64,000 nt of DNA, taken from positions 38,656 through 102,655 of the forward strand of contig CAWBRS010000010.1 in NCBI GenBank assembly GCA_963791345.1, written 5' to 3'. The notes under the pieces are model-generated. The model worked only from the letters and a program-made list of their open reading frames with translations. It was not told the origin of the DNA and did no database searches. The stretch is from an uncultured Thermoleophilia bacterium. Lineage in GTDB: Bacteria; Actinomycetota; Thermoleophilia; UBA2241. A program made the translations under genes and the position numbers. Shown here one piece after another: positions 16,667 to 35,269 of the stretch (its first letter is position 1; each line of letters starts with the position of its first letter).

Positions 16667-16761
16667 GCGAGCGGGCGCGCGGGTCGACACCGCGACGCAG
16701 CCGAGGTCCGGCCGGGCCGGACCATGACGACGGTAAACAGACGGACCCAAAGGGGGACCTG

Positions 16762-17409: not shown

Positions 17410-17449
17410 GGCGGCGGTCCGCGATCCCCACGATCACGAGGAGCACGAG

Positions 17450-18832
17450 ATGATCGACCTTATCGAGGTCTTCGAGCGCGCCGAGAGCGGCCCGCTCACC
17501 TCCGAGACCGACTACTACATGAAGCGTTACGTCCCCAAGCTCAGCGAGGTGATCGCGCGCCACAAGGTCAAGTGGGACAAAGCGACCATCATCAACACCG
17601 ACGACGCGCTCACCGACGCGGTCTTCGAGGCGGCCGTCGACCTGATCGCCGAGGCCGGCGCGTACTGCCCCGAGACCAACCGCGTCATGCAGTTCACCCG
17701 GGACGAGATCGTCACCGCCTGCGCGCAGTGCCCGAAGGCGGCCACGTTCGGCGAGGGCCGTGAGCGCAAGACGATGTACGGTCGCCGCCCCGACACCACG
17801 GACGACCGCCCGTGGGTGCACGTCGGCGGCGGCATCTACACGACCGACGAGCAGGTCTACGTGGACACCGTCGAGAAGATGGCGTCCTTCGACATCGTCG
17901 ACTCGGTGAGCGTGCCCTCGATCCTGCACCTGCGTGGCAAGGACGCGCGCGTACGTTCGCCGCAGGAGATCCTCGTGGCCTGCAAGACGGTGCGCCTGGC
18001 GCGCGAGGGCATCCGCCGCTCGGGGCGCGCCGGCCTGCCGATCATCAACGGCATCTCGGCCGCCTCACAGCCGGCCTCGATGTTCGCCGCGAGCTACCCC
18101 GATTTCGGTCTGCGTCCGAGCGACGGCTTCCTCATCGACTTCCTCAGCGAGATGGTCGTCGGCTACGAGGCCCTGCAGAAGGTCGCCTTCTACAACAGCA
18201 TCAGCGCCAACATCGGCTCGACCTCGACGCCGCTCTTCGGCGGCTACGCCGGCGGCGCCGAGGGCATCGCCGTGCAGGCGACCGCCTACATGATCATGGG
18301 CACGCTGATCTTCCGCGGCAGCTACCACTACAACGCCCCGCTGCACAGCAAGCTGCACCTGAGCTCGACCAGGCCCCTCATCTGGGCGATCGCCATGTCC
18401 AACGCCGCCGTCGGCCGCAACATGGGCTACCCGATGGTCAACCTTCCCTACCTCGGCGGCGGCTCGGGCACGAAGCAGTACCACTACGAAATGGCGTGCT
18501 ATATGCTCGCCGTTGTGACATCGGGTGGAAACGTCTTCTCGGGGCATCCGGCCATGGCCGTCCAGGCGGACTCGCTCGTGCCCGACGACCACAAGTTCCA
18601 CGCCGAGATCGGCCTCGCCGCCGCGAAGCTCACGCGCGCCCAGGCCGAGCCGCTCGCGCAGAAGCTCTTCCCGCTGTTCGGCGACAAGCTCAAGGACCCG
18701 GACAAGGGCCTCACGTTCCAGGAGGTCTACGACATGAAGACCAAGCGGATCGCCAGCGCCGACTACCAGACGGCGATGGACGAGGTCCGCAGCGAGCTGG
18801 CCGACATGGGTCTCGAGGTGCCGGTCTCGTGA
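17450..18832 (+). CDS. MtmB-superfamily (monomethylamine methyltransferase family) protein, non-pyrrolysine member
   Basis: 460 aa, similar in length to archaeal MtmB (~458 aa) and collinear with it as I recall the sequence. Examples are PLFGGYAGGAEGIAVQATAYMIMG versus PIFGGYAGGIEETTIVDVATHINA, and the C-terminus GLTFQEVYDMKT..DEVRSELADMGLEV versus GKTFQECYDVKT..GARKKLEDLGLVF. The region equivalent to the Pyl site reads RAGLPIINGISAASQ with no TAG. Confidence 0.8.
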   Translation: MIDLIEVFERAESGPLTSETDYYMKRYVPKLSEVIARHKVKWDKATIINTDDALTDAVFEAAVDLIAEAGAYCPETNRVMQFTRDEIVTACAQCPKAATFGEGRERKTMYGRRPDTTDDRPWVHVGGGIYTTDEQVYVDTVEKMASFDIVDSVSVPSILHLRGKDARVRSPQEILVACKTVRLAREGIRRSGRAGLPIINGISAASQPASMFAASYPDFGLRPSDGFLIDFLSEMVVGYEALQKVAFYNSISANIGSTSTPLFGGYAGGAEGIAVQATAYMIMGTLIFRGSYHYNAPLHSKLHLSSTRPLIWAIAMSNAAVGRNMGYPMVNLPYLGGGSGTKQYHYEMACYMLAVVTSGGNVFSGHPAMAVQADSLVPDDHKFHAEIGLAAAKLTRAQAEPLAQKLFPLFGDKLKDPDKGLTFQEVYDMKTKRIASADYQTAMDEVRSELADMGLEVPVS

Positions 18833-19740
18833 CGGGACTCACTCCCGAGGCGGCGATCGCCCGCATCGACGACTGGCGCGGCAAGGCCGTCGACTGGCAG
18901 GAGATCGGCGGCGGCATCACCAACCACAACTACCTGATCACCGTCGACGAGGGCCGGGGCGGCAAGTACGTGCTGCGCATACCCGGCGCCGGCACCGACA
19001 CGTTCATCGACCGCGGCCGCGAGCTCGGCAATCACGAGTCGACGGCCGCGGCCGGCGTCTCGCCGCCGCTGCTGCACGTGCTCGAGCCCGAGAAGTGCAC
19101 GGTCGTGCCGTTCATCCAGGGTGAGACGATGCACCCCGAGACGCTCGCCGGCCACCCTGACCGGCTCGAGAAGGTGGTCGACGTCATCAGGACCTACCAC
19201 GACAGGGCCACCTTCTCCAACGACACGAGCGTCTTCCCGATGATCCGCCGGTACTTGCAGATGGCCGCCGAGGTGAAGGCGTGGTTTCCGCCCGACTGGC
19301 CGCGCCTCATGGCCGTCGGCGCCGAGATCGAGGCAGCGATGGGGCGCGCCGCGCCGCGCCCCGTCGCCTGCCACAACGACCTGCTCTCCGAGAACTTCAT
19401 CCTCGACGGCGACGGCCGGATGTGGCTCATCGACTGGGAGTACGGCGGCGTGAACGACCCGTACTTCGACCTCGGTGACTTCTGCGTCGAGCACCCGCTC
19501 TCGCGCGACGAGGAGCGCCTCATCATCACCAGATACTGCGGCGAGATGCAGGAGCACCGTTTCCACCGCATGCTCCTGCACAAGATCGTCGCCGACCTGT
19601 GGTGGAGCATCTGGGCGTTCATCCAGGAGCGGGTGTCACGGCTCGACTTCGACTACCGCGCGTACGGCACCGCGCGCCTCGACCGTCTGCGCGGCAACGC
19701 CGCCGACCCGGAGTACCCCACGTGGCTCGCCACGGTGTAG
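18829..19740 (+). CDS. Choline/ethanolamine kinase family protein (copy 1)
   Basis: GTG 18829 overlaps the mtmB-like stop (GTGA). It has the Brenner motif ACHNDLLSENFI and a complete choline-kinase signature LIDWEYGGVNDPYFDLGDFCVE. Ends in TAG. Confidence 0.85.
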   Translation: MTGLTPEAAIARIDDWRGKAVDWQEIGGGITNHNYLITVDEGRGGKYVLRIPGAGTDTFIDRGRELGNHESTAAAGVSPPLLHVLEPEKCTVVPFIQGETMHPETLAGHPDRLEKVVDVIRTYHDRATFSNDTSVFPMIRRYLQMAAEVKAWFPPDWPRLMAVGAEIEAAMGRAAPRPVACHNDLLSENFILDGDGRMWLIDWEYGGVNDPYFDLGDFCVEHPLSRDEERLIITRYCGEMQEHRFHRMLLHKIVADLWWSIWAFIQERVSRLDFDYRAYGTARLDRLRGNAADPEYPTWLATV

Positions 19741-19816
19741 GCGGGCGCCCGCACGGGCGCCCCGGAAGGTGCGCCGGCCGTTCTTGGGCGGCCGCGACAC
19801 GGATCGGGAGAAGCAC

Positions 19817-20629
19817 ATGAGCGACGAGGCCACTCACCCAGCCGGCCAGGTCGGCGACGAGGTCGGCGTCGGCACCCCCGACCCCGACCTCGCCAAGGTC
19901 TTCGAGGACGAGGCGTTGCGCGTGGTCGAGGCCGGCGACGCCCAGGGCGTCACCCTGCGCGTCATCGGCGCCCTGGCCTTCCACCACCACTGCCCGGAGT
20001 TCGCCTTCATGCAGGCGAAGTTCAACCGCGTCTACACCGACATCGACTTCGCCGGCTACGGCAAGCAGGACCGCGCGATCCGCGCGCTGTTCGTGTCCCT
20101 CGGCTACGACGAGGATCTGGAGATCAACGCCTTCCACGCCGAGGGCGGCCGCCTCATCTTCAACCACCCCGGCAAGCAGATCCACGTCGACGTGTTCATG
20201 GACCGCCTCTACTTCTGCCACGAGATCCCCTGGAAGGGGAGGCTCGAGGTCGACTCGCCCACCATCCCGCTGGCCGAGCTGCTGCTCGAGAAGATGCAGA
20301 TCGTGAAGATCAACGAGAAGGACATCATCGACACGATCATGCTCCTGCGCGAGCACGAGATCGGCGCCGACGACGAGGAGCACATCAACTCGGCGCGCGT
20401 GTCCAAGCTGTGCGCCGGGGAGTGGGGCCTCTGGCGCACGACGACCATGAACCTCGACAAAGTGCGGGAGTACCTCCCCCATCTCGACCTGGACGAGGAG
20501 GACAAGAGGGTGGTGTCGCAACGCGTGGCCGAGCTGTTGAGCGCGATGGACGACTACCCCAAGGGCACCAAGTGGAAGCTGCGCGCCAGGGTGGGCGACA
20601 AGAAACGCTGGTACAACGAGATCGACTGA
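19817..20629 (+). CDS. Conserved hypothetical protein, possible Pol-beta-type nucleotidyltransferase fold (copy 1)
   Basis: 270 aa. LRVIGALAFHHH...RVYTDIDFAGY resembles the G-x(n)-DxD nucleotidyltransferase core. It is paralogous to 27464..28279. The function is not recognised. Confidence 0.5.
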   Translation: MSDEATHPAGQVGDEVGVGTPDPDLAKVFEDEALRVVEAGDAQGVTLRVIGALAFHHHCPEFAFMQAKFNRVYTDIDFAGYGKQDRAIRALFVSLGYDEDLEINAFHAEGGRLIFNHPGKQIHVDVFMDRLYFCHEIPWKGRLEVDSPTIPLAELLLEKMQIVKINEKDIIDTIMLLREHEIGADDEEHINSARVSKLCAGEWGLWRTTTMNLDKVREYLPHLDLDEEDKRVVSQRVAELLSAMDDYPKGTKWKLRARVGDKKRWYNEID

Positions 20630-20656
20630 AGGGTCCACCGGAGAGGCGGCAGGTAC

Positions 20657-21658
20657 ATGGCATTCTGGAAGAAGAAGGACGGCGGTGACGGCAAGCGCGT
20701 CCGCTTGTTCTACGCGACCGACATCCACGGCTCCGAACGCACGTACCGCAAGTTCATCAACGCCGCCAAGTTCTACAAGGTCGACCACGTGGTCATGGGC
20801 GGCGACATCATGGGCAAGTTCCTCATCCCGATCGTCGACGAGGGCGGCGGGCGCCACCGCGTCACGCTCCAGGAGGATCTCACCCATGTCGAGGGCGATC
20901 AGGCTCTCGGCGAGCTCAAGGAGCGCATCGAGACGCTCGGCTTCTACCACGTGACCGTGACCGAGGACGAGCTGCGCGAGATGCAGAGCGACCAGAAGAA
21001 CATCGACGAGGCTTTCCGGCGCGAGGCGCACGCCCGGCTCGAGCGGTGGATCGCCTTCGCCGACGAGCGCCTGGACGGAACGGGGGTGAAGTGCTATGTG
21101 ACGGGCGGCAACGACGACCCGCAGGACCTGCTCGATCTGCTCGACGCGGCGCAGAGCGAGCACGTCGTGAACTGCGAGGAGAAGGTCGTCCTCCTCGAGG
21201 ACCAGTACCCCATGGCGAACTGCGGCTACAGCAACCCGACGCCGTGGAAGACGCCGAGGGAGACCGACGAGGAGACCCTGGAGCAGTTGCTCGAGAAGTC
21301 GGTGGAGGGCATCGACGATTTCACCAGCGCCATCTTCAACATGCACGTCCCTCCGTACGATTCCACGCTCGACGACTGCCCCAAGCTGGACTGGTCGACC
21401 GACCCGCCGATGCCGGTCGTCATCGCCGGCGTGCCGCAGAGCGCTCCGGCGGGCAGCACGGCGGTGCGCAAGGTCGTCGAGAAGTACCAGCCGCTCGTGC
21501 AGCTCACGGGGCACATCCACGAGTCCCGCGGTCTCGTCAAGGTCGGACGCACGACGGTGATCAACCCCGGCAGCGAGTACGGAGAGGGCATCCTGCGCGG
21601 CTGCATCTTCACGCTCGAGCCGGGTAAGGTGGTCGGCTACCAGATGACCTCGGGGTGA
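20657..21658 (+). CDS. Calcineurin-like metallophosphoesterase (copy 1)
   Basis: 333 aa with motifs ATDIHGS, GGDIMGK, GGNDD and GHIHES. Confidence 0.85.
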   Translation: MAFWKKKDGGDGKRVRLFYATDIHGSERTYRKFINAAKFYKVDHVVMGGDIMGKFLIPIVDEGGGRHRVTLQEDLTHVEGDQALGELKERIETLGFYHVTVTEDELREMQSDQKNIDEAFRREAHARLERWIAFADERLDGTGVKCYVTGGNDDPQDLLDLLDAAQSEHVVNCEEKVVLLEDQYPMANCGYSNPTPWKTPRETDEETLEQLLEKSVEGIDDFTSAIFNMHVPPYDSTLDDCPKLDWSTDPPMPVVIAGVPQSAPAGSTAVRKVVEKYQPLVQLTGHIHESRGLVKVGRTTVINPGSEYGEGILRGCIFTLEPGKVVGYQMTSG

Positions 21659-21726
21659 CGACGCGGGGGGCCGCGGTCGCCGGGGATCCGGGAGTCGAGA
21701 GAGTCAACCGGAACTGGGGGTAACGC

Positions 21727-23370
21727 ATGGCAACAGTCGCAGCCAAGCCGGAGGTCTTCAGCCGTAAGGCCTCGGGGCTCTCCAGGGTGATGTCGCCCTG
21801 GTCGGCGTACATGTACAACTTCCTGACCATGGGCGTGATCTTCCCGTGGACGTTCGTGTGGGCGCCGGCGGCGTTCCCGGGCGTCTCCGTGTGGCAGGCA
21901 TGCCTCTACGCCATCCTGCTCGAGCTGCCCATCGCCCTCGCCTACGTCTGGATGGCGACCGCGATGCCGCGCTCCGGCGGGGACTACGTCTTCCAGAGCC
22001 GCGTGCTCGGCGGGGCCATCGGCTTCCCGATCGTGATGAGCGGCTTCGTGATCTGGATCGTGCAGTGGGTCGCCCTGGCCGGCTGGCTCCTCGCCACCCT
22101 GGGCGTGGCGCCGCTGTTCATGGGGCTCGGCTACTACTACGAGAGCACCAGCCTCATCGACGCCGCCGTGTGGGCGCAGGGAGCGCAGGGCAAGGTCGTC
22201 ATCAGCATCATCGGCGCGTTCCTCATGGCGCTGCTGCTCGTGACGGGCTTCAAGAACTACGTGCGCCTGCAGTACTTCATGTTCGCGGCCACCGGCATCC
22301 TGGTCGTGATCTTGCTCGTGCAGTTCCTGCGCACCACCCCGGCCGAGTTCGCCGAGGCGATGAACAAGTTCTCCCTGTTCGTCGACGGCCGCGAGGACTA
22401 CTACAGCTTCATCCAGAAGGACGTGGCCGACGCCGGGGTGGACCTGATGCCCAAGTTCGCGCTGGGGGCCACGCTACTCGCCATCCCGATCGTCTGGACG
22501 AGCCTGCAGTGGGCGACCTACAGCGTGCAGCAGGGCGGCGAGATCAAGGGCGCCCGCGTCTTCAAGAACCAGATGTTCATCATCGTCGGCTCCATGATCT
22601 CGGTGGGCGTCGTCCTGGCCCTCATCGCGTGGGCCGAGGAGCGGGCCGTGGGCACCGAGTTCTTCAACGCAGTCTCCCACTCGTACTACTACCTGGTCAG
22701 CTCCTCGGGAGAGGGCATCGGCAGCGTCCTGCCCTTCCCCGGCATGTTCGCCATCGTGATCACGGCGAACCCCATCATCGTCGTCCTGACCGCGGTGAGC
22801 TTCATGCTCGCCTCGTTGCAGATCACCTGCAACTGCTACATCGGCATGACCCGCATCATGGTCGGCATGTCGCTCGACCGCACGCTGCCCGCGTTCCTCT
22901 CCAAGATCAGCCCGCGCTTCCGTTCGCCGGCGATCGCGCACTGGATCTACTTCGCCTTCGGGTGCTTCGCGATCTACGGCTACAACTACTGGGTCGACTG
23001 GTACAGGCTGACGCTCGGCGTCACCTTCGCCTGCGGGTACGTGTTCGTGGTCAGCTGCCTCGCGGCGGCGCTGATGCCCTACAGGGCCAAGGCGCTCTAC
23101 GATGCTTCGCCGGGCGCCAAGTACACGCTGGGCGGCTTCCCGCTGGTCACGATCTTCGGCGTCATCGGGTTCGTCTTCGGCGGCGCGGCGCTCGTCGCGT
23201 TCCTCTGGAACCCGAACTACGGCCTGCGCGGCGAGTCTCCGTACTGGGGCTACATCATGGTCGGCAGCATCTTCATGGTCTGCCTCGTCGGCTACTGGAT
23301 CGGCAGGGCCTACAACAAGAGCCGGGGCATCGACGTCAACTACGCCTTCCTCGAGGTGCCGCCGGAGTGA
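21727..23370 (+). CDS. APC-superfamily amino acid/amine permease (copy 1)
   Basis: 547 aa with about 12 or more TM segments. It carries AMPRSGGDYVFQSRVLGG, typical of APC transporters. Confidence 0.8.
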   Translation: MATVAAKPEVFSRKASGLSRVMSPWSAYMYNFLTMGVIFPWTFVWAPAAFPGVSVWQACLYAILLELPIALAYVWMATAMPRSGGDYVFQSRVLGGAIGFPIVMSGFVIWIVQWVALAGWLLATLGVAPLFMGLGYYYESTSLIDAAVWAQGAQGKVVISIIGAFLMALLLVTGFKNYVRLQYFMFAATGILVVILLVQFLRTTPAEFAEAMNKFSLFVDGREDYYSFIQKDVADAGVDLMPKFALGATLLAIPIVWTSLQWATYSVQQGGEIKGARVFKNQMFIIVGSMISVGVVLALIAWAEERAVGTEFFNAVSHSYYYLVSSSGEGIGSVLPFPGMFAIVITANPIIVVLTAVSFMLASLQITCNCYIGMTRIMVGMSLDRTLPAFLSKISPRFRSPAIAHWIYFAFGCFAIYGYNYWVDWYRLTLGVTFACGYVFVVSCLAAALMPYRAKALYDASPGAKYTLGGFPLVTIFGVIGFVFGGAALVAFLWNPNYGLRGESPYWGYIMVGSIFMVCLVGYWIGRAYNKSRGIDVNYAFLEVPPE

Positions 23371-23501
23371 TCGCACGACAGGCAGACTGAAACGGCAAAC
23401 GCACGCGCGACGACACGCTGCGACGGCAGCGCGCCCATTGAGCCCCGAGCGGCGGCCGCCGGACGCGGCGGCCGCCCCCGTCAGCAGGAAAGGCAGGGTA
23501 C

Positions 23502-24437
23502 ATGGCAACAGCGGCACACCATCTGTCGCCGGACGAGCTCATCGCCCGCATCGATGACTGGAAGGGCAAGGACATCCGCTGGGAGGAGCTCGGCGGCGGC
23601 ATCACCAACCACAACTACATCGTCTGGGTGAACGGCGGCTGGGACAACCCGGGCGGCGGCAAGTACGTGCTCCGCGTCCCGGGCGCGGGCACCGACATGT
23701 TCATCGACCGCGACGTCGAGCGCGAGTGCATGGTCGAGGCGGCCAGGATCGGCACGGCCCCCCAGGTCGCCCACGTCATCGAGCCCGAGAAGGCCATGGT
23801 CATCGACTTCATCGACGGCGAGGTCATGCACCCCGATACGATGGCCGGGCACCCGGAGCGCATCACGCAGGCTGTCGAGGCGGTCCGCGTGTACCACGAC
23901 AACGCGGTCTTCACCAACAAGATCGAGATCTTCGACATGCTCCGTCGCTACACCAAGGTGGCGAGCGACATCAACGCCCCCATGCCCGAGCGGCTCGCGG
24001 CGCTGCTGGAGCGGATGCCCGAGATCGAGGAGGCGACGGCGCGCAACCCCGTCCCCGACGTCGCCTGCCAGAACGACCTGCTCTCGGAGAACTTCATCGT
24101 CGACGCGAACGGCAAGATGTGGATCATCGACTGGGAGTACGGGGGCATGACCGACCCCTACTTCGACCTCGGTGACCACGTCATGGAGCACCCGTACTCG
24201 CGTGAGGAGGAGCGCCTCGTCATCGAGACCTATCTGGGCCACATGGACGAGCGGCTCTTCGGCCGCATGATGCTCTACAAGATCGTCTCGGCCGTCTGGT
24301 GGGATGTGTGGGCGATGATCCAGCACACGGTGTCCCAGATCGATTTCGACTACATGGAATGGGCCATGGACCGCGTCGGACGCGCCGAGCGCGGCGTGGC
24401 CGACCCCGACTACCTGAAGTGGCTGGCCGAGTGCTGA
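23502..24437 (+). CDS. Choline/ethanolamine kinase family protein (copy 2)
   Basis: 311 aa with ACQNDLLSENFI and IIDWEYGGMTDPYFDLGDHVME. It is collinear with copy 1, with roughly half of positions identical by eye. Confidence 0.85.
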   Translation: MATAAHHLSPDELIARIDDWKGKDIRWEELGGGITNHNYIVWVNGGWDNPGGGKYVLRVPGAGTDMFIDRDVERECMVEAARIGTAPQVAHVIEPEKAMVIDFIDGEVMHPDTMAGHPERITQAVEAVRVYHDNAVFTNKIEIFDMLRRYTKVASDINAPMPERLAALLERMPEIEEATARNPVPDVACQNDLLSENFIVDANGKMWIIDWEYGGMTDPYFDLGDHVMEHPYSREEERLVIETYLGHMDERLFGRMMLYKIVSAVWWDVWAMIQHTVSQIDFDYMEWAMDRVGRAERGVADPDYLKWLAEC

Positions 24438-24524
24438 GCGGGGCGCCGCGATCGCCTGTGAACGCAGCGAAAGGAGCGAGGAAGGGATGAAGCAGCACGA
24501 GATCACGCCGGAAGGAGGTTTGAC

Positions 24525-25472
24525 GTGACCGCACGGGTCTTCTTCGCGACCGACGTCCACGGGTCGGAGGTCTGCTGGCGGAAGTTCATCAACTCCGGAC
24601 CGCACTACGGCGCCAACATCCTGATCCTCGGCGGCGACATGACCGGCAAGGCGGTCGTCCCGATCATCGATCAGGGGGCGGGCAAGTACTGCTACCACAT
24701 GCAGGACGTCCGCCACGACTTCGAGGGCCAGGAGGCGCTGGCCAAGGAGACGCGCACCATCCGCGACCACGGCTACTACGCCGTGACCATGACCGCGGAC
24801 GAGCGTGACGAGTACACCAGGGACCAGGACAAGTTCGACGAGCTCTTCCACTCGCAGATGCGCAGCACCGTCGCCGACTGGGTGGAGTGGGCCGACGCCA
24901 AGCTGGCGGGCTCCGGCCTGCAGTGCATCGTGTGCCCGGGGAACGACGACCGTCACGACATCGACGGTATCCTCGCGCAGGCCGAACACATCCAGGTGGG
25001 CGAGGGCAACGTCCTCGACCTGCCGGACGGGTACCAGCTCGCCTCGAGCGGCTGGACGAACCTCACGCCGTGGGACACCCCACGTGAGGAGGACGAGCCC
25101 GAGCTGAAGAAGCGGCTCCAGGGGATCGTCGCCCAAGCGACGGTGTCGCCGGAGCGCCTCGTCCTCGGACTGCACTGCCCGCCCTACGACACGAACCTCG
25201 ACGTGGCGCCCAAGATCGACTGGGACACGCTGACGATCAAGGGGCAGGACACGGCCCACGTCGGCTCCACGGCCGTCACAGACATCATCAAGGAGGTGCA
25301 ACCTGTCCTGTCGCTGCACGGCCACATCCACGAGAGCCGTGCCGCCGAACGCATCGGGCGCACGCTGGCGATCAACCCCGGCAGCTCGTACGTGGAGGGC
25401 ACGCTGTCCGGCGTCGTGGTCGAGCTGGACGGCAAGAGCAAGATCAAGAACTACCGACTGACCATGGGGTGA
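24525..25472 (+). CDS. Calcineurin-like metallophosphoesterase (copy 2)
   Basis: GTG follows GGAAGGAGG. 315 aa with motifs ATDVHGS, GGDMTGK, PGNDD and GHIHES. It is collinear with 20657..21658. Confidence 0.85.
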   Translation: MTARVFFATDVHGSEVCWRKFINSGPHYGANILILGGDMTGKAVVPIIDQGAGKYCYHMQDVRHDFEGQEALAKETRTIRDHGYYAVTMTADERDEYTRDQDKFDELFHSQMRSTVADWVEWADAKLAGSGLQCIVCPGNDDRHDIDGILAQAEHIQVGEGNVLDLPDGYQLASSGWTNLTPWDTPREEDEPELKKRLQGIVAQATVSPERLVLGLHCPPYDTNLDVAPKIDWDTLTIKGQDTAHVGSTAVTDIIKEVQPVLSLHGHIHESRAAERIGRTLAINPGSSYVEGTLSGVVVELDGKSKIKNYRLTMG

Positions 25473-25545
25473 GCGCGCCGACGCGCGACACCAGGGGGAC
25501 GGCACCATGGTGCCGGCCGTAACCATTCGACAGGAGGGTCAACCT

Positions 25546-27279
25546 ATGGCAACAAACCCCGCACCGGAGCAGACGCTCTTCGTGCGCAAGGCCAGCGGCC
25601 TGGTCAAGGGGTGGTCCGGCGGGGACGGGTTCCGCTACTCGTTCTTCTCCGTGAACCTGTTCCTCGCCATCTGGTCGTTCGCCTACGCGACGTTCTTCCC
25701 CGAAGGCAGCCTGTTCTGGTCCATCGTCATCACCGCGATCTTCATCGTTCTCGAGATCATCGTCTACGCCGCCCTCATCTCGGCGATGCCGCGCGCCGGC
25801 GGCGACTACGTGTGGATGACGCGCATCTTCCACAGCGCGGTCGGCTTCGTGATCGCCGCTGTGGGCTGGTGGTTCATCCTCTGGCTCTGGACCCCGATCT
25901 ACGCCGACATGGGCGTCCAGACCACGATCAAGCCCATCTTCCGCATCCTCGGCCTGCACGGCGCGGCCGACTGGCTGGGGAGCCGCACGGGCATCTTCGT
26001 CGCCTCCCTCGTGGTCATCGCCATCGCCTCCACCCTGGTCGCGGTGGGCATGAAGACCTACGCCAAGTTCCAGAAGTGGGCCATGTGGATCGGCCTCGCC
26101 GGCGTCGTCATCTGCGGCATCCTGCTCCTGGTCACCTCCGGTGACAGCTTCAAGGAGAAGTTCAACGAGGCCTCCGAGAAGTACTACGGCGGCGACGCGG
26201 GCCTGCTCGACCTGACCAAGTACGAGCAGGACGACGCCGGCCTGTTCGTCTACGACGTCGACGGCAACATGGTCGCGGTCGAGGGCGAGACCCACGCCGG
26301 CGCGTTCGAGGCCATCGAGGCGATCGGCGAGGGCACCGGCATGCCGACCTCGACGTTCCAGGGCGGCATCGGCAAGTACACGTGGTTCCTCATCCCGTTC
26401 GCGCTCTTCTGGATGGCGTGGCCGAACTGGGGCGCCACCCTCTACGGCGAGGTGCGCGGCGCCAAGGACTTCCGCAAGAACATCTACCAGATGCTCGGCG
26501 GCCTCTTCGTGCCGACCTTCATCGCCCTGTCCTTCCTCGGGCTCATGACGTGGAAGGTGGGCTACCAGGCCTTCATGGGCACCATGGCGGGCTTCTGGTG
26601 GGGCATCTCGCCGATCGGTGGGGACTACGTGTCGCCCACGGCGATGATCTCCTGGATCGTGCCCAACGCGGCCTTCCAGGTCATCCTCATCGCCGCCATC
26701 TCGCTGCTCCTCTTCGGCTGGTTCGGCACGCTCTTCCTGTCGTCGACGCGCATGATCTTCGCGGCGGCCTTCGACCGGATCCTGCCTGAGCGCGTCGCGA
26801 AGGTGACCTCCAGCGGCGTGCCGGTGATCGCCCTGGTCCTCATGACCATCCCGTCGATCATCATGGCCGCGCTCTACGCCTACACGCCCGTCGACGAGGA
26901 CTACGGCGTCACCATCGTCAAGCTCTTCACCTACGACGCGACGCTCGGCATCGTCATCATGTTCCTGGGGTCGGCGCTCGCCTTCATGGTCATGAAGTGG
27001 CGCGCCAGGGCGATCTGGGACAGCTCGTCGCTGCCCAAGGGAGAGATCGCGGGCATCCCGTGGCTGTCCTTCGTCGCCGCGATCTACTCCGGGTTCATGG
27101 CGTGGGTCATCTACCGGTTCGTCGTCGACGACATGTACGGGGTCAACAACACCGAGTCGGCCATCTTCATGGGCGTCCTGTACGTGCTGGCGATCGTCAT
27201 CTGGGTCGTCGCCTGGGCGGTCCGCAAGAAGCAGGGTATGGCGCTCGAGTCCGTGGCCAAGGAGATCCCGGTCGAGTAA
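25546..27279 (+). CDS. APC-superfamily amino acid/amine permease (copy 2)
   Basis: ATG 25546 follows AGGAGGG. 577 aa with AMPRAGGDYVWMTRIF. It shares the N-terminal FVRKASGL motif with copy 1 (FSRKASGL). Confidence 0.8.
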   Translation: MATNPAPEQTLFVRKASGLVKGWSGGDGFRYSFFSVNLFLAIWSFAYATFFPEGSLFWSIVITAIFIVLEIIVYAALISAMPRAGGDYVWMTRIFHSAVGFVIAAVGWWFILWLWTPIYADMGVQTTIKPIFRILGLHGAADWLGSRTGIFVASLVVIAIASTLVAVGMKTYAKFQKWAMWIGLAGVVICGILLLVTSGDSFKEKFNEASEKYYGGDAGLLDLTKYEQDDAGLFVYDVDGNMVAVEGETHAGAFEAIEAIGEGTGMPTSTFQGGIGKYTWFLIPFALFWMAWPNWGATLYGEVRGAKDFRKNIYQMLGGLFVPTFIALSFLGLMTWKVGYQAFMGTMAGFWWGISPIGGDYVSPTAMISWIVPNAAFQVILIAAISLLLFGWFGTLFLSSTRMIFAAAFDRILPERVAKVTSSGVPVIALVLMTIPSIIMAALYAYTPVDEDYGVTIVKLFTYDATLGIVIMFLGSALAFMVMKWRARAIWDSSSLPKGEIAGIPWLSFVAAIYSGFMAWVIYRFVVDDMYGVNNTESAIFMGVLYVLAIVIWVVAWAVRKKQGMALESVAKEIPVE

Positions 27280-27310
27280 GCGCCCGAGTGCTCGCGCACG
27301 CGCCGGCGGA

Positions 27311-27343
27311 GGCGCCGGCGGCCGCTCTGCGGCCGCCGGCGCC
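27311..27343 (+). terminator. GC-rich hairpin downstream of permease copy 2
   Basis: GGCGCCGGCGGCCGC-tct-GCGGCCGCCGGCGCC is a perfect 15-bp stem. No clear U-tract follows, which is common in high-GC genomes. Confidence 0.5.
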
Positions 27344-27463
27344 CGCCCGGCCCTCCGCGAGTCGAGACACGGCCCGGCCCCCGCGGGGGCCGGGCGCAGC
27401 GAGAGGCGGCTTCAACGCGGCGGGCACGCGGCCGCGAGTCGCTCGAGGAGGCCGTGACGGACC

Positions 27464-28279
27464 ATGGCGCAGACGCCGTTCATCCTGCCGAAGGACATCC
27501 CGATCGCCGAGTACCCCGGCCCCGAGGTCTTTCTGAGCGAGGGCAAGCGACTCGTCGAGGAGGGCGAGAAGCGCGGCATCGTGATGCGGGTCATGGGCCC
27601 CCTCGCGCTCCACTACTACTTCCCGGACCAGATCGATCTGTACGCACGGCTCGAGCGCCTCGGCGAGCGCTACTTCACCGACATCGACTACGCGGCGTAC
27701 GGCAAGGGTCGCGGCAAGATGCGCGACTTCATGAAGGACATGGGCTACGAGTGCGACCAGGAGACCATGGTCATGTCCGGCAAGACGCGGCACATCTACT
27801 ACGCCGGCGCCGTGCCGATGATCGACGTCTTCTTCGACAAGCTCGACTACTGCCACGAGGTGGACTACACGGGCCGGCTCGAGAAGGACCCGTGGTCCGT
27901 GCCGCTCTCCGACATCCTGCTGCAGAAGCTGCAGATCGTCGAGATCAACGACAAGGACCTCAAGGACATCGAGTACCTCTTCGTGACCTCCGAGCTGGGC
28001 AGCGACGACGAGCACAAGATCAACATGGACTACATCGCCCAGCGCTTCGCCGGCGACTGGGGATTCTGGTACACCGCGACGCAGCTCAACCTGCCCAAGG
28101 TGAAGGAGCACTGTGCGCAGGTCCCCGCGCTGACACCCGAGATGTGTGAGCGCATCAAGGCGCAGGCCGACAAGCTGCTGGCGCGGGTCGACGCCGAGCC
28201 CAAGACCAAGGCGTGGAACAAGCGCGCCAAGAAGGGCGCTTCGAAGACCTGGTACAACGAGGGGTTCTCCGACTGGTGA
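27464..28279 (+). CDS. Conserved hypothetical protein, possible nucleotidyltransferase fold (copy 2)
   Basis: 271 aa. MRVMGPLALHYY...RYFTDIDYAAYGK, with shared blocks against 19817..20629 (..LLEKMQIVKINEKDI.. versus ..LLQKLQIVEINDKDL.., and C-terminal K.WYNE). Confidence 0.5.
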   Translation: MAQTPFILPKDIPIAEYPGPEVFLSEGKRLVEEGEKRGIVMRVMGPLALHYYFPDQIDLYARLERLGERYFTDIDYAAYGKGRGKMRDFMKDMGYECDQETMVMSGKTRHIYYAGAVPMIDVFFDKLDYCHEVDYTGRLEKDPWSVPLSDILLQKLQIVEINDKDLKDIEYLFVTSELGSDDEHKINMDYIAQRFAGDWGFWYTATQLNLPKVKEHCAQVPALTPEMCERIKAQADKLLARVDAEPKTKAWNKRAKKGASKTWYNEGFSDW

Positions 28280-28294: not shown

Positions 28295-28364
28295 TGTGCG
28301 GTTCTGTGCGAGGCTGCAGTTGACACAGCCCGCCCCGTCGGTACAATGTGTGCGACTTTGTGCG
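28295..28364 (+). promoter_or_regulatory. Promoter (TTGACA-16-TACAAT) flanked by two pairs of TGTGCG direct repeats, for deoR copy 2
   Basis: TGTGCG occurs at 28295-300 and 28305-310 upstream. TTGACA is at 28320-25 and TACAAT at 28342-47. A downstream pair (TGTGCG-N4-TGTGCG) lies within 28348-28364. Confidence 0.6.
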
Positions 28365-28395
28365 GTTTGACGACGTGAACGGAGGCCCCGCGGTC

Positions 28396-29190
28396 GTGCC
28401 GTCACAAGACGTGCCCGAGCTCCACGAGATGATCCCGGCGCAGCGGCGCACCCGCATCTCGGAGCTCCTGAAGGAGCGCCGCGCCGTGCGCGTCTCCTCC
28501 CTCAGCGAGGACCTCGGCGTCTCCGAGATGACGATCCGCCGCGACCTCGAACGCCTCGAGGGTGAGGGCGTGCTCGTGCGCACGCACGGGGGCGCCGTGC
28601 TCCGGCGGCGGATCGGTGAGGAGCCCCTCTACCGCGACAACGTCGCCGCCAACGCCGAGCAGAAGCGTCGCATCGCCCAGCGTGCGGCGGCCCTCATCGA
28701 GCCCGGCGAGAGCGTGTTCCTCAGCGCCGGCACGACGGCCGCCCAGGTCCTGCGCCACGTCGACCCCGCCCTCGAGGCGCGCGTCGTCACCCACAACGTC
28801 GGCGCCCTCGCCGAGGCCCAGGGTCTGGGCCTCGAGGTGATCCTCGTCGGCGGGCTCTACAGGCCGCGCTCGAACGCCGTCGGCGGCGCCGGGGCGGTCG
28901 AGCAGATCGGCCGCTTCCACGCCAGCCGCATGTTTCTCGGGGTCGACGGACTCGACCTCGAGGAGGGTCTGACCACCCCGACCGTCGGCGTGGCCGCCAT
29001 CGAGCGCGCCATGCTCGACCAGACCCGCGGCGAGGTCGTCGTGCTCGCCGACCGCAGCAAGATCGGCGTCGTCGCCGACGTCGGCATCTGCGGGTTCGAC
29101 CGCGTCGACACCGTCATCGTGGACGACGGTGTCGACGAAGCCGTGCGCGACGAGCTGACGTCGATGGGCGTCCGCTGCATCGTGGTATGA
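28396..29190 (+). CDS. DeoR family transcriptional regulator (copy 2)
   Basis: GTG lies 10 nt after GGAGG. The protein and DNA are near-identical to copy 1, including identical runs of more than 50 nt, e.g. the last ~65 nt of both genes. Confidence 0.85.
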   Translation: MPSQDVPELHEMIPAQRRTRISELLKERRAVRVSSLSEDLGVSEMTIRRDLERLEGEGVLVRTHGGAVLRRRIGEEPLYRDNVAANAEQKRRIAQRAAALIEPGESVFLSAGTTAAQVLRHVDPALEARVVTHNVGALAEAQGLGLEVILVGGLYRPRSNAVGGAGAVEQIGRFHASRMFLGVDGLDLEEGLTTPTVGVAAIERAMLDQTRGEVVVLADRSKIGVVADVGICGFDRVDTVIVDDGVDEAVRDELTSMGVRCIVV

Positions 29191-29302: not shown

Positions 29303-30502
29303 ATGCACGAACGCAACATGCTCGAAGACCTGGTCGCCGTCAGCCCCGGCATGGAGATCTGGTGGGACTCCTCGCCGGTCATCCTCGACAACTGGTACAA
29401 GAAGATGCTCGCCAAGGCCGACCCCGGCGACCACGAGGTCCTCAAGGCCCAGTTCACGCGCATGTACAACGCGGACGACCCGATGGGCCAGCTCTTCCGC
29501 GGCGTCACGACCAACCCGCCGCTCTCGCTGCAGGCGATCAAGGACGATCCGCCGCGCTGGCAGGCCGAGGCGGCGAAGATCCTCGCCGCGAACGACGGGC
29601 TCGACACCGAGGGCCTCTTCTGGGAGCTGTACAAGCAGGTCGTCAAGCAGGGCTCCGACATGTTCCTGCCCCTGTACGAGGCCTCCGGGCACAAGGAGGG
29701 CTTCCTCTCCGGCCAGGTCGACCCGCGGAGCGCGTTCGACAAGGACGCGATGCTCGCCCAGGCGCTCGAGATCCGCGCCATCAACCCCAACGTGATGATC
29801 AAGGTGCCCGGCACCAGAGAGGGCTACGACATCATCGAGGCTCTCACCGCCAAGGGCATCCCGACCAACAACACGCTCACCTTCGTCCTGCCGCAGCTCA
29901 TGGACTGCGCGCGGTCGGTGCGTCGTGGCCTCGAGAAGGCCAAGGCCGACGGCGTCGACCTCTCGGGCTGGCGCTCGGTGATCACCCACATGGAGGCTCG
30001 CTACGGCGACCTCGGCGGCCTGCGCGAGGCCGGCGCCGAGAAGGGCATCGAGATCACCGAGGGCGACGTCCGCCTGGCCGAGCTGGCGATCTTCAAGAAG
30101 GCCTATCGCCTGGTCAAGGAGGGCGGCTACCAGAGCAAGATGCTCTCCTGCTCGCTGCGCCTCGGCCCGGTCGTCGACGGCAAGACGAAGGTCTGGCACC
30201 TCGAGGAGAAGGCCGGCGCCGACGTCGTCGTCACCTGCCCGCCGAGCCTCATCGACGAGCTCATCAACTTCCCGACCCCCGAGGACATCAAGTTCGAAGA
30301 GGGCCGCATCGCCGTCGACCCGCCCAAGGAGGTCATGGACAAGCTCATGCGCATCCCGTACTTCGAGCGCGCCTACGAGGTCGACGGCTACACGCGCGAC
30401 GAGTACAACACCCACCCCGCGCTGGTGAAGACCGCCGAGGCCTTCTCCAAGGCCACCAACGAGATGGTCGCGTTCGCCGGCAGCTGCCTCGCGAACGCCT
30501 GA
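29303..30502 (+). CDS. Transaldolase-family protein (long, 399 aa)
   Basis: GVTTNPPLSL, GQVDPRSAFDKDAM, the Schiff-base lysine context VMIKVPGTREG, and IPTNNTLTF. AAGGGGGA RBS. Confidence 0.8.
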   Translation: MHERNMLEDLVAVSPGMEIWWDSSPVILDNWYKKMLAKADPGDHEVLKAQFTRMYNADDPMGQLFRGVTTNPPLSLQAIKDDPPRWQAEAAKILAANDGLDTEGLFWELYKQVVKQGSDMFLPLYEASGHKEGFLSGQVDPRSAFDKDAMLAQALEIRAINPNVMIKVPGTREGYDIIEALTAKGIPTNNTLTFVLPQLMDCARSVRRGLEKAKADGVDLSGWRSVITHMEARYGDLGGLREAGAEKGIEITEGDVRLAELAIFKKAYRLVKEGGYQSKMLSCSLRLGPVVDGKTKVWHLEEKAGADVVVTCPPSLIDELINFPTPEDIKFEEGRIAVDPPKEVMDKLMRIPYFERAYEVDGYTRDEYNTHPALVKTAEAFSKATNEMVAFAGSCLANA

Positions 30503-30527
30503 CCACGACCCAGAAAGGACGGCGAGA

Positions 30528-31610
30528 ATGGCCGACATCAAGGACAAGATCCTCCCCTGGATCTGGACCGCCCCCGAGTACAACACCGGCATCCTCGACA
30601 AAGCCTGGGCACAGCCCGAGTGCGGTCGGATGATGCTGAACGAGAACCCCGTGCCCCCGTCGGACGCCGTGGTCGATGCCATCACCGAGATGGCGAAGAA
30701 GGGCAACCGCTACCCCGACCGCGCCTACCGCCTGCGCACCAAGCTGGGCGACCTGCACGGCGTGGCGGCCGAGAACATCGCGCTGGCCAACGGCTCCTCG
30801 GAGACGATCGACGCGATGATGCGCATCTTCCTCAAGCCGGGCGACGAGTTCCTCTGCTCCAACCCGACGTTCGAGATGTTCCCGTCGCGCGCCGGTCTCT
30901 GCAACGCCACGACGGTGCAGATCCCGCTGCGTGAAGAGGACCTGCAGTACGACGTCGACGGGATGCTGGCGGCGGTCAACGAGAAGACCAAGCTGATCCT
31001 CATCATCAACCCGAACAACCCGACGGGCATCTTCATCGACGACGCCGACCTCATCAGGTTCTGTGAGCTCGGGATCCCGCTCTGCATCGACGAGGCCTAC
31101 CTGGACTACCACCCGCAGGTCGAGGCCAAGATCGACCTCGTCAAGCAGTACCCGCACGTGTTCCTCTCGCACACCTTCTCGAAGGCCTTCGGCCTGGCCG
31201 GCGTGCGCTTCGGCTACGTCGTCGCCGACCCGACGCTCGTCGAGGCCTTCAACCTCATGTACCTGCCCTGGAACCTCAGCCTGATGGCGATCGCCGCCGC
31301 CGAGGCCATCCTCGACACGGGTGAGGTGAAGGAGAAGGTCGTCTACAACAACGAGTGGATGGCCACCTTCGTCGCGGAGCTCGAGGCCAAGGGCCTCAAG
31401 CCGTTCCCGCCGCACGGCAACTACATGCTGGTCGACGCCTCGGTGACCGGCAAGACGAGCGCCGAGATCGTCCAGGCCGGCATGGAGATGCAGAAGCTCT
31501 TCCTCAAGACCATCAAGCCGATCAACGGCAAGGACGGCTACTTCCGCGTCACGCCGGGCACGCCCGAGGAGAGCGAACGCTTCGTGCGCTTCGTGCGGGA
31601 GTACTTCTGA
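30528..31610 (+). CDS. Class I/II PLP-dependent aminotransferase of the HisC/CobD (histidinol-phosphate aminotransferase) family
   Basis: 360 aa with LNENPVPP, NPNNPTG, IDEAYLDY, and TFSKAFGLAGVRFGY (PLP lysine). Confidence 0.85.
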   Translation: MADIKDKILPWIWTAPEYNTGILDKAWAQPECGRMMLNENPVPPSDAVVDAITEMAKKGNRYPDRAYRLRTKLGDLHGVAAENIALANGSSETIDAMMRIFLKPGDEFLCSNPTFEMFPSRAGLCNATTVQIPLREEDLQYDVDGMLAAVNEKTKLILIINPNNPTGIFIDDADLIRFCELGIPLCIDEAYLDYHPQVEAKIDLVKQYPHVFLSHTFSKAFGLAGVRFGYVVADPTLVEAFNLMYLPWNLSLMAIAAAEAILDTGEVKEKVVYNNEWMATFVAELEAKGLKPFPPHGNYMLVDASVTGKTSAEIVQAGMEMQKLFLKTIKPINGKDGYFRVTPGTPEESERFVRFVREYF

Positions 31611-31715
31611 GACGTCTGACGCACGCACGACGCCCGGCCGCAGCCTCCGTCCTCCCCGGGTACGCCCGGGAGGGCGGGGGCTGACGGGCTTCCACTCGCG
31701 AACGAAAGGACCCAG

Positions 31716-33741
<2,026 letters not shown>

Positions 33742-33800
33742 ACGACGACCCTGCGAGCACGGACATCCCACAACGATTCACGGTGCGGAGGTCACCGAGC

Positions 33801-35210
33801 ATGAAGATATTGACCAGGATGGGTGACTCCTCGAACGTCGAGCTCACCCCGGACGAACTGCGTCAGGAGTTCGTCACGGGGTCCGAGGCCGCGGCGGTCA
33901 AGGCGAAGATCCCCACGCTGACCGAGAACGAGGTCGACTTCCTCGTCGACATGTTCTCGGCGCCGACGCGACTCTGGGGCGTGCAGCGCGGCAACGAGGT
34001 CGTGATGACCAAGGACGGCTGCGTCAACGCGCTCAACTCGTCGCGCATGTCGAGCGGCGTCGTCGCGCCGGTCAACCGCGAGGTGGGCGTGCGCCTCTTC
34101 GAGTCGATGCTCGGCTTCGACTCGATGGAGGTCTCGCACAACGACTACTCCGTGAAGCCGCAGCGCTTCCTCAAGGCCCTGGAGCAGCTGCACATGGAGC
34201 TTCTGCAGGAGACCACCATCTTCCCGCTGCTCTACGGCTTCATGCCCAACCTCGGGCTCTACTACCGCCCGGACGGGTCCTTCGAGAACCCCTCCGACCT
34301 GCTGCCCCTGGGCAAGATCGCCGAGGCCCGTCGCACGCAGGAAGAGGCGCTCGAGGCGTGCATGGAAGACTGCATCGAGATGAGCGACTGCATGGTCGCG
34401 ATGGGCGCCGACGGCATCGACTACGACACCGTCGCGTCGACCGGTGACGCCGAGTTCCTCGCCGTGCTCAAGACGACCGAGCACGTCGCCAACGAGACGG
34501 GCCTGCCGGTCGAGATCGGCATGTCGTCGGAGATGGTCCTCGGCTTCCACGGCCAGCTCGAGTACAACGGCGTCCGCCTCGCCGGCCTCTGGCCGCACCA
34601 GCAGCTCGACCTCTGCGAGCAGGCGGGCTGCGCGATCTTCGGCCCCGTCTGCAACACGAACACCAGGAAGACGGTGCCCTGGAACCTCGCCCGCGCGCTG
34701 ACGTTCGTGAAGGCCTGCACCGAGGTCGCCAAGATCCCGATCCACCCGAACGTGGGCATGGGCGTCGGCGGCGTGCCGATGTTCGAGACGCCTGCCGTCG
34801 ACGTCGTCACGCGCTGCAGCGCGGCGATGATCGAGATCGGCAAGGCCGACGGGTTGTAGGTGGGCACGGGCGACCCTGCCGGCATGCACCTGGCGCATCT
34901 GCTGGCCTCATCGATGGGTGGCATCCGGGCCGCTGGAGACCTGGTGGCGAGGATGCAGCTCAACAAGAAGATGAGGATCGACGACGCCAAGAGGTACGTG
35001 GCCGACAAGCTTCACGTGACGCCGCTCGACCTCTCCGATCCGACGCTGATGAGAGGTCTCAGGGAAGAGCTCGACATCGGCACGATCACCGGCGTCCCCG
35101 GTGTCGCGAAGGGCATCGCGGCGAAGGTACGCATCGCCGAGCTGCTCGACATCGAGATCAACTCCGTCGAGCAGTTCAAGAAGAAGACGGGCCTCGTCTC
35201 GGCGAAGTAG
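33801..35210 (+). CDS. mtbB: Dimethylamine:corrinoid methyltransferase MtbB homologue with an in-frame TAG (34857-34859) at the pyrrolysine position
   Basis: ATG 33801 lies 9 nt after GGAGG. Track ORFs 33783..34859 and 34860..35210 share one frame and are separated only by TAG. The joined ~469-aa product is collinear with archaeal MtbB as recalled ([54 protein letters not shown], ..[16 protein letters not shown].., [27 protein letters not shown]). Confidence 0.8.
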
Positions 35211-35230: not shown

Positions 35231-35269
35231 CGCGGCCGGCCGCGCCCGAGGAGGGCGCGGCCGGCCGCG
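35231..35269 (+). terminator. GC-rich hairpin downstream of mtbB
   Basis: CGCGGCCGGCCGCGCCC-gagga-GGGCGCGGCCGGCCGCG is a perfect 17-bp stem starting 21 nt after the stop. Confidence 0.55.

Follow-up and report, generated by a model that had tools for sequence, protein, structure and literature searches.

Gene content of the locus

We analysed a stretch of 64,000 nucleotides (hereafter the window, G000:C10:38656-102655) from a metagenome-assembled genome (MAG) of 3.13 Mb that has 72% GC and is 77% complete. Its close relatives are records titled uncultured Thermoleophilia, with peat, bog, lake sediment and soil as sources. The element under study is a row of five genes on the forward strand, coding for a DeoR-type regulator (deoR2), a transaldolase-like protein (TAL*), a HisC-like pyridoxal 5'-phosphate (PLP) aminotransferase (hereafter the PLP enzyme), a transketolase (tkt) and a corrinoid methyltransferase (mtbB), with gaps of 112, 25, 105 and 59 nt. 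The TAL*-PLP pair was retained in ~80 genomes from two phyla. Comparison of these loci shows a regulated catabolic unit associated with the uptake or phosphorylation and the N-demethylation of choline-like compounds, and with a repeated need for transketolase. The features of the locus are as follows.

28320..28347, + strand: promoter-like site TTGACA-16-TACAAT (11 of 12 bases matching, with 0.3 such sites expected by shuffling), beginning right after the stop of unkB and before deoR2
28348..29190, + strand: deoR copy 2 (deoR2), DeoR/GlpR-family regulator, with Pfam HTH_DeoR and DeoRC
29303..30502, + strand: TAL*, divergent transaldolase-fold protein, 399 aa, ATG to TGA
30528..31610, + strand: HisC-like class I PLP aminotransferase (class I/II family), 360 aa, conserved partner of TAL*
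31641..31683, + strand: GC-rich stem-loop with a 19-bp stem in the PLP-tkt spacer (by folding, -59 kcal/mol, z -2.47)
31716..33741, + strand: tkt, transketolase of the canonical type, its frame broken by one surplus base at 32820
33801..35210, + strand: mtbB, gene of a dimethylamine-type corrinoid methyltransferase; the TAG of the pyrrolysine position stands in frame at 34857-34859
35232..35268, + strand: perfect 16-bp GC hairpin 3' of mtbB (by folding, z -4.4)

The coordinates and strand of the four genes starting at 29303, 30528, 31716 and 33801, co-directional and closely spaced behind deoR copy 2, were as described in the first-pass annotation of this DNA. That annotation had also seen no terminator between them. 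A terminator scan of the forward strand from 27400 to 35700 found no hairpin followed by a T-tract, in agreement with it, but the GC-rich stem-loop between the PLP enzyme and tkt had been missed; both hairpins listed above emerged by folding alone. PLP-tkt spacers of similar stability were present in most related loci. The stem-loop is possibly an attenuator, or a terminator without T-tract, that uncouples tkt from TAL*-PLP. Given its strength and the equally stable spacers of the relatives, TAL-PLP and tkt-mtbB may be partly uncoupled, and tkt partly expressed on its own. The hairpin at 35232-35268 is likely the end of the transcription unit. The coordinates of deoR2 are those of the longest open reading frame, and its real start is probably slightly 3' of the promoter. 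Its nearest NCBIfam models were GlpR and AgaR, every score being under cut-off, and it was 84% identical to deoR1 (13056-13952).

TAL* is a divergent member of the transaldolase family

TAL* matched the Pfam family TAL_FSA (PF00923) with 114 bits (cut-off 27). Its AlphaFold2 (AF2) model (pLDDT 86) is consistent with the TIM-barrel fold of transaldolases, the top Foldseek matches being Tal of C. glutamicum and of N. gonorrhoeae (TM 0.66-0.78, probability 1.00). Across 26 sequences from two phyla, the Schiff-base lysine Lys167 and the residues Asp22, Asn71, Asn189 and Thr191 were invariant; their counterparts in TalB are Lys132, Asp17, Asn35, Asn154 and Thr156. The phosphate site Arg233/Ser284/Arg286 (TalB Arg181, Ser226 and Arg228) was invariant as well, and the TTNP motif was retained. 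From these residues, TAL* is predicted to bind a sugar phosphate by Schiff-base chemistry.

Fold, Schiff-base Lys, Asp, TTNP, Asn/Thr and the Arg/Ser/Arg phosphate site are thus shared with Tal, TalB and FsaA (PF00923; C. glutamicum 3R5E), but the differences were considerable. TAL* was only 20-22% identical to these proteins, had an invariant THMEARYGDLGG loop and ~100 additional C-terminal residues, and carried Gln for Glu96 and Met for Phe178 of Tal (Tyr131 of fructose-6-phosphate aldolase, FSA). The Met, Met230, was assigned to this position by aligning TAL* with 3R5E and by comparison with the TalB motif ISPFVGR. All NCBIfam transaldolase cut-offs were missed (best 104 bits against 367 for NF002881; 82 against 234 for TIGR00876). 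Nor does TAL* have the residue pair of an FSA: the Gln is there, but Met230 stands in place of the catalytic Tyr. The gene was labelled "transaldolase" at first, but TAL* is without the canonical catalytic Glu. It is also distinct from the housekeeping tal, a canonical gene (270 bits) found elsewhere in the genome, at C10:209496-210533 in the usual pentose phosphate pathway (PPP) locus. The genome has a short TAL_FSA gene as well.

The Gln138 equivalent was present in 55 of 56 full-length relatives sampled from a broader divergent clade, most of which also had the Met. Distant relatives of TAL* (30-45% identity) were found in a fusion with a HAD domain near a sulfotransferase and a methyltransferase, and in contexts with fructose-bisphosphate aldolase (FBA) and HAD, with NUDIX, or with a kinase and an alcohol dehydrogenase. 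At L093 3257-5209, L092 7108-12377 and L097 (37-45% identity), we observed either a HAD phosphatase fusion or neighbours resembling AdoMet decarboxylase and alanine dehydrogenase, a methyltransferase, a sulfotransferase and a class II FBA. These mixed neighbourhoods of the distant relatives gave no clue to the substrate. The Gln-type clade seems to serve several undescribed sugar-phosphate pathways, some of them biosynthetic.

The HisC-like aminotransferase

The PLP enzyme scored 247.6 bits against the HisC model (TIGR01141), short of the cut-off of 276.55. A more canonical hisC lies elsewhere in the genome, at C10:313180-314149 (L098 4181-5150) beside DAHP synthase and cmk, with ~290 bits when summed over its two frame pieces. 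An exact look-up of the PLP protein in the contig index returned no identical match.

With HisC (M. tuberculosis histidinol-phosphate aminotransferase HspAT, 4R8D; Medicago HISN6, 8BJ1) the PLP enzyme shares the fold family, the NENP lid, YPD, the SKA Lys, the NNPTG Asn and the C-terminal phosphate Arg. In HspAT, Asn176 and Arg346 are among the residues that hold the substrate phosphate, and Asn103, Tyr127 and Tyr261* form the imidazole pocket (PMC4703992). The PLP lysine Lys219 and Arg340 were invariant in our set and Asn164 was present in more than 90% of the sequences; the second phosphate Arg of HisC (Arg337 in M. tuberculosis) is probably Lys327 here. The imidazole-pocket residues, mapped by motif and not by structure, were swapped for Ser91, Phe115 and Trp248, all three invariant. 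The setting of the gene differs from that of HisC as well: it is catabolic, with alanine dehydrogenase adjacent in Desulfobacterales. Because alanine dehydrogenase adjoins, a pyruvate-linked transaminase is indicated.

The cassette as an insertion into an older operon

The genes 5' of the unit form the following context.

13056..28279, + strand: deoR1, APH kinase, MttB-family gene, corrinoid protein, non-pyrrolysine MtmB-family gene, and two modules of kinase, phosphoesterase, APC permease and a protein without assigned family

Two same-genus genomes without TAL* and the PLP enzyme, G012 and G003 (both 95% complete), share the order deoR-aph-mttB-mtmB-chk-mpe-perm-(unkB)-mtbB-SDR-GS-AOR, in which aph is the APH kinase, chk a choline-type kinase, mpe the phosphoesterase and perm the APC permease; the last three genes code for a short-chain dehydrogenase/reductase (SDR), a glutamine synthetase (GS)-like ligase and an aldehyde:ferredoxin oxidoreductase (AOR). 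Junction alignment showed the same layout in the window except for positions 28280-33750, between the stop of unkB and the ribosome-binding site of mtbB. This block of 5.5 kb consists of the promoter, deoR2, TAL*, the PLP gene and tkt. Since unkB and mtbB are direct neighbours in the cassette-free genomes, the block is an insertion, a mobile catabolic cassette placed into a kinase/methyltransferase/permease operon. On this comparison mtbB is ancestrally part of the kinase-phosphoesterase-permease operon, and its link to TAL*, the PLP enzyme and tkt is secondary. An operon linking tal, a PLP enzyme and tkt to mtbB had been proposed from the sequence of the locus. The adjacency is real and recurrent, being retained in all 7 other cassette-bearing genomes among the 26 relatives of our family sample (mtbB 87-99% identical), but it stems from the cassette insertion, with mtbB coming from the older operon. 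GC content in the window from ~14 to 44 kb was 65-69%, below the 72% of the MAG.

With its APH/choline-type kinase, MttB-, MtmB- and MtbB-family corrinoid methyltransferases, phosphoesterases and APC permeases, the host operon is predicted to import, phosphorylate and N-demethylate choline-like amino alcohols. For mtbB, the profile match (PF09505 / TIGR02368) was full-length, its positions 5-353 and 355-463 flanking the TAG, and this in-frame TAG was retained in 12 orthologous loci. The genome encodes tRNA-Pyl(CUA), PylD (185 bits), PylS (314 bits) and tRNA-Sec; the full-length match, the UAG at the pyrrolysine position and the pyrrolysine machinery agree with an MtbB. Its substrate is predicted to be dimethylamine or a dimethylamino alcohol. 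In the genome as a whole there were dozens of MttB-family paralogues and ~8 MtbB paralogues.

The nearest described system is the choline:tetrahydrofolate methyltransferase MthK/MthB/MthC/MthA of E. limosum, in which MthB demethylates phosphocholine and not choline (Jiang et al. 2025, PMC12155760). The likeness lies in gene adjacency: there, as in the host operon, a kinase stands beside an MttB-family methyltransferase and a corrinoid protein, and in E. limosum the amino alcohol is phosphorylated ahead of its corrinoid-dependent demethylation. E. limosum takes off one methyl group and excretes dimethylaminoethanol, whereas the window has MtmB- and pyrrolysine-type MtbB-family enzymes in addition, plus the cassette, whose TAL*, aminotransferase and Tkt would use up the carbon skeleton. 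A methylcobamide:tetrahydrofolate methyltransferase was not seen in the window.

The block 3' of mtbB (35437-41401) contains the SDR, two GS-like ligases and the AOR, whose reading frame is split (39471-40316 and 39767-41401). The same genes follow mtbB in the cassette-free G012 and G003, the second GS-like gene being mapped in G003 only. The block may have served the demethylated amine as an earlier sink, by way of gamma-glutamylation.

Other features of the region were recorded. The MttB-family and MtmB-family genes are separated by the corrinoid-protein gene (16700-17385, B12-binding domain 17041-17382), which is hidden in simple lists of open reading frames. The proteins encoded by unkA (19895-20629) and unkB (27464-28279) are paralogues of ~245-270 aa that matched no Pfam or NCBIfam family. 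Their family has ~8 copies in the genome. In related loci unkB was 92-94% identical, above the identity of the neighbouring genes, and it may belong to the amine modules as a further part. An ACT-family (TC 2.A.3.4-like) permease gene at 42567-44197 is split over two frames; its orthologue lies directly 5' of TAL* in minimal cassettes elsewhere. One relative carried a second cassette copy (G002:C8:12179-17805), inverted and decayed, ~6 kb from the intact one, with TAL* pieces containing a TAG and frame breaks, and with partial PLP, tkt and mtbB genes.

The cassette transketolase has probably replaced the housekeeping copy

The tkt reading frame is broken in the window, with frame A (N domain) ending at 32819 and frame B (Pyr and C domains) starting at 32821. 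The two pieces scored 480.7 and 381.2 bits against TIGR00232 (cut-off 682), an intact cassette orthologue reached 881 bits, and the window protein aligned to 3HYL and 8CIP without interruption across the break. The surplus base at 32820 was missing from nine close relatives (window AAGGACG, relatives AAGACG or AAGGCG). Similar frame splits were observed in the hisC-like gene at C10:313180-314149, in the AOR and in the permease of the same MAG; with the tkt break, they point to an error-prone, probably long-read, assembly. The break looks like an assembly error, because the nine relatives are without the base, similar breaks occur elsewhere and this tkt is the sole copy.

The MAG and each relative searched had one canonical tkt. 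In cassette-free genomes it lies in the usual tkt-tal locus. The tal locus of the MAG was syntenic with those of G012 and G005, minus tkt. The cassette tkts formed a clade of their own (support 95/98), apart from the same-genus tkts of tkt-tal loci. It appears from these comparisons that the cassette tkt displaced the ancestral tkt beside tal, which was deleted, and is now the sole transketolase. A search for a housekeeping tkt/tal pair elsewhere in the genome, suggested in the first-pass annotation, therefore gave a divided result, with a canonical tal in the PPP locus and no second tkt. That annotation would have read an only tkt/tal pair as simple housekeeping. This applies to tkt but not to tal, and we attribute the sole tkt to displacement by the cassette copy, not to a housekeeping role of the cassette.

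The unit is conserved across genera and phyla

We searched the 26 relatives of the family sample for TAL*, the PLP enzyme and tkt. TAL* and the PLP enzyme co-occurred exactly, in 8 of the 26, with tkt adjacent every time, and the order TAL*-PLP-tkt-mtbB was found in all 7 other cassette-bearing genomes. The pair was not found in half of the same-genus genomes. In a wider comparison of ~48 Thermoleophilia-type loci, 45 of which were scored for the neighbours of the PLP gene, tkt was 3' of it in 43 and TAL* 5' of it in 42. This gene order is far beyond chance.

The surroundings of the cassette were more variable. Its neighbours in Thermoleophilia included choline-kinase/MttB/MtmB/MtbB modules, choline/ethanolamine-type kinases and an ACT-family permease. 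Choline-type module genes were within 10 kb in 18 of the ~48 loci, in at least 7 distinct arrangements, and pyrrolysine-type mtbB was present in 12. The minimal form consists of the ACT-family permease, TAL*, PLP enzyme, tkt and DeoR; four of five genomes checked with the minimal cassette had choline-kinase-family genes elsewhere. Choline kinase also occurred in the cassette-free G003 and G012, so that its presence does not follow that of the cassette.

TAL*-PLP pairs with 63-70% identity were also present in Syntrophales and Desulfobacterales MAGs (Desulfobacterota). The Syntrophales order was an ABC importer similar to PhnS2/PhnU2, a GntR/UTRA regulator, TAL*, the PLP enzyme, the beta and alpha subunits of an electron-transfer flavoprotein (ETF) and a DAO-GCV_T enzyme similar to dimethylglycine dehydrogenase. 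In two Syntrophales loci a second such importer and then an MttB-family protein followed, the latter 62% identical to the MttB-family gene product of the window. The Desulfobacterales order was a divergent transketolase (TK)-like protein, GntR, TAL*, alanine dehydrogenase (503 bits), the PLP enzyme, a D-amino-acid aminotransferase, alanine racemase and others, with chk-like kinases in two loci. The nearest families of the importer were the PhnS2/PhnU2 "putative 2-aminoethylphosphonate" transporters (binding protein 334 bits for PhnS2, with the PhnS2/PhnU2 scores under their cut-offs), and the regulator resembled PhnF/PhnR. The nearest solved structures to the binding protein were AfuA, which binds sugar phosphates, and a pyridoxal-phosphate-binding protein.

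Two non-orthologous transketolases thus stand beside the pair, the canonical tkt in Thermoleophilia and the divergent TK-like gene in Desulfobacterales. Two other candidates for common components were rejected: the two genes 3' of the PLP gene in Syntrophales, considered as a split transketolase, are ETF beta and alpha by Pfam, and HAD hydrolases, considered as a third component in both phyla, had only motif I in common. At L075 11398-16805 (Desulfobacterales), the genes 3' of the PLP gene code for the class IV D-amino-acid aminotransferase, alanine racemase, PGA_cap, an Asp/Glu-racemase-like protein and a Ddl-like ATP-grasp protein. They may recycle alanine through D-Ala/D-Glu or form a separate D-amino-acid function.

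The original suggestion of a functional unit of a TAL-like protein, a PLP enzyme and a transketolase, tied to the catabolism of methylated amino alcohols, gained from this comparison. The evidence is synteny over two phyla with importers, alanine dehydrogenase and N-demethylating enzymes, and with a transketolase twice independently. It supports that the unit is not a chance neighbourhood.

A possible route from amino alcohols to pentose phosphates

We propose that phosphoethanolamine is converted to phosphoglycolaldehyde, which TAL* and Tkt would carry into the pentose phosphates; judging from genes and their order, we put the probability of this reading at about 35-45%. Phosphoethanolamine, as the fully demethylated product, would give its amino group to pyruvate or 2-oxoglutarate via the HisC-like enzyme. 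The assignment to this substrate was made because the family acts on 2-amino-alkyl phosphates. Lys167 of TAL* would form a Schiff base with a ketose phosphate (fructose 6-phosphate or sedoheptulose 7-phosphate) and pass the C3 unit onto phosphoglycolaldehyde, giving xylulose 5-phosphate, from which transketolase would move carbon into fructose 6-phosphate and triose phosphate. A C2 phosphate is no central metabolite, which would explain the recruitment of both a transaldolase and a transketolase. The DeoR regulator is predicted to respond to one of the phosphorylated intermediates. Methyl groups would enter the corrinoid/folate system and the C2 skeleton the pentose phosphate pool, making ethanolamine ammonia-lyase dispensable; EutB was not found in the MAG or in 15 relatives. 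More tentatively, at clearly less than even odds, a phosphoethanolamine:pyruvate aminotransferase and a Gln-type transaldolase for a C2 acceptor are the committed enzymes of an undescribed pathway in anaerobes without ethanolamine ammonia-lyase.

The proposed route would explain the kinases at the loci of one phylum and the importers of phospho-compounds in the other. The use of phosphocholine by MthB (PMC12155760) agrees with it. The component families are known, but neither the cassette nor its Gln-type TAL clade nor the proposed route turned up in the literature, and a search on the gene cluster or on Thermoleophilia methyltransferases returned nothing relevant. As in the ribulose- and xylulose-monophosphate cycles of methylotrophs and in synthetic FSA/transketolase glycolaldehyde routes, a small reactive aldehyde would be fixed on a sugar phosphate and rearranged by transaldolase and transketolase. 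Those cycles and routes fix formaldehyde or free glycolaldehyde, whereas the aldehyde proposed here is a C2 phosphate from transamination.

Several observations weigh against this route. The catalytic Glu96 of TalB is replaced by the invariant Gln138 (SGQVDPR in TAL*, SIEVDPR in C. glutamicum Tal) and the position of Phe178 of Tal, or the catalytic Tyr131 of FSA, by the invariant Met230 (T-H-M-E-A-R); TAL* may not be a transaldolase at all. The pocket of the PLP enzyme (Ser91, Phe115, Met/Leu117, Trp248) is equally like the hydrophobic pocket of an aromatic aminotransferase or a shrunken HisC pocket, and the conserved Arg340 could bind a carboxylate rather than a phosphate. About 30 of the 48 Thermoleophilia loci, those of the minimal form, were without kinase or methyltransferase within 10 kb. 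As tkt is the sole copy, its presence may reflect a housekeeping need. The SDR/GS-like/AOR block, present with the entire demethylation operon in cassette-free genomes, could be the real ethanolamine sink. A PhnS2-type importer would equally suit 2-aminoethylphosphonate. In the searchable literature, neither a phosphoethanolamine aminotransferase nor a biological use of phosphoglycolaldehyde was found; the latter appeared in prebiotic chemistry only.

Alternative readings

The substrate may instead be another phosphorylated or phosphonylated amine, such as 2-aminoethylphosphonate and its N-methyl forms, aminopropanol phosphate, serinol phosphate or an amino-sugar phosphate, with the order of steps unchanged (demethylation, transamination, aldol or ketol transfer). 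The best matches of the importer to PhnS2/PhnU2 and the PhnF/PhnR-like regulator fit such a substrate, the changed HisC pocket does not by itself name one, and the distant relatives of TAL* stand in varied sugar-phosphate and biosynthetic settings (HAD fusion, FBA, kinases, methyltransferases). However, the importer scored below the PhnS2/PhnU2 cut-offs, and phosphonates are not products of kinases, whereas the cassette has choline/ethanolamine-type kinases beside it in Thermoleophilia and in two Desulfobacterales loci. Transaldolase and transketolase acting on phosphonoacetaldehyde would leave the C-P bond intact, while C3 or C4 amino-alcohol phosphates would lead directly to triose or tetrose phosphates and make both enzymes unnecessary. 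We regard a substrate of this kind as unlikely.

It is rather improbable that the unit acts on free ethanolamine, imported by the permease and converted by the aminotransferase to glycolaldehyde, with TAL* as an FSA-like aldolase and no kinase involved. The products would be arabinose 5-phosphate, from glycolaldehyde and glyceraldehyde 3-phosphate, or xylulose, by addition of a C3 unit, and Tkt (or TAL*) would lead to the pentose phosphate pool. FSA accepts glycolaldehyde. The commonest Thermoleophilia form, ACT-family permease-TAL*-PLP-tkt-DeoR with no kinase nearby, agrees with such a pathway, as does the Gln of TAL* at the Glu96 position, which is also found in FSA; the structures 4RZ6 and 9QPK are of TalB variants with E96Q/F178Y, presumably made for aldolase activity. 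But TAL* has Met230 and not the catalytic Tyr of FSA, the Desulfobacterota orthologues lie behind importers of phosphonate or sugar-phosphate type and not amine permeases, HisC-family enzymes typically require an anionic group on the substrate, and neither arabinose-5-phosphate isomerase nor xylulokinase was seen in the cassette.

Far less probable is that tal, tkt and a HisC paralogue lie beside a methylamine gene by chance and share no pathway. This would account for the finding of a single canonical transketolase per genome, both in the MAG and in all relatives searched, and for the stable hairpin between TAL*-PLP and tkt. We rejected a pure housekeeping function in view of the separate canonical tal (270 bits) in the usual PPP locus, the divergence of TAL*, far under all transaldolase equivalog cut-offs, the patchy distribution of TAL*-PLP, missing in half of the same-genus genomes and crossing phyla with importers, alanine dehydrogenase and demethylases, and the separate clade of the cassette tkt.

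The option raised in the first-pass annotation, that the PLP enzyme works as a CobD-type decarboxylase of phospho-amino acids, making the amino-alcohol-phosphate linker of the methyltransferases' corrinoid cofactor, can hardly be right and was rejected: the enzyme is the top CobD-model match in this 77%-complete MAG, whose genome leans heavily on corrinoid enzymes, but its 151.9 bits against TIGR01140 are far under the cut-off of 290.55 and lower than those of other HisC-like paralogues of relatives, it was not found in G003, G005 and G012, which have the same methyltransferases, and the proteins whose genes stay with it are TAL*, alanine dehydrogenase and importers, with no cob genes nearby.

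Implications

In anoxic soils, peat, sediments and guts, the head groups choline and ethanolamine are a major supply of nitrogen and carbon. To our knowledge, the only corrinoid-dependent choline route ends at dimethylaminoethanol. If the conversion of phosphoethanolamine to pentose phosphates via phosphoglycolaldehyde is correct, it would complete a trimethylamine-free mineralisation of choline, and anaerobes could assimilate via the PPP all the skeleton carbon in choline and in the head groups of phospholipids. It would also give functions to a large unannotated transaldolase clade (>3000 database proteins) and to a HisC-like clade, and a first biological role to phosphoglycolaldehyde. The exchange of the housekeeping tkt for the cassette-borne copy, as it appears from the comparison of tkt loci, would be a clear case of an accessory island turning indispensable.

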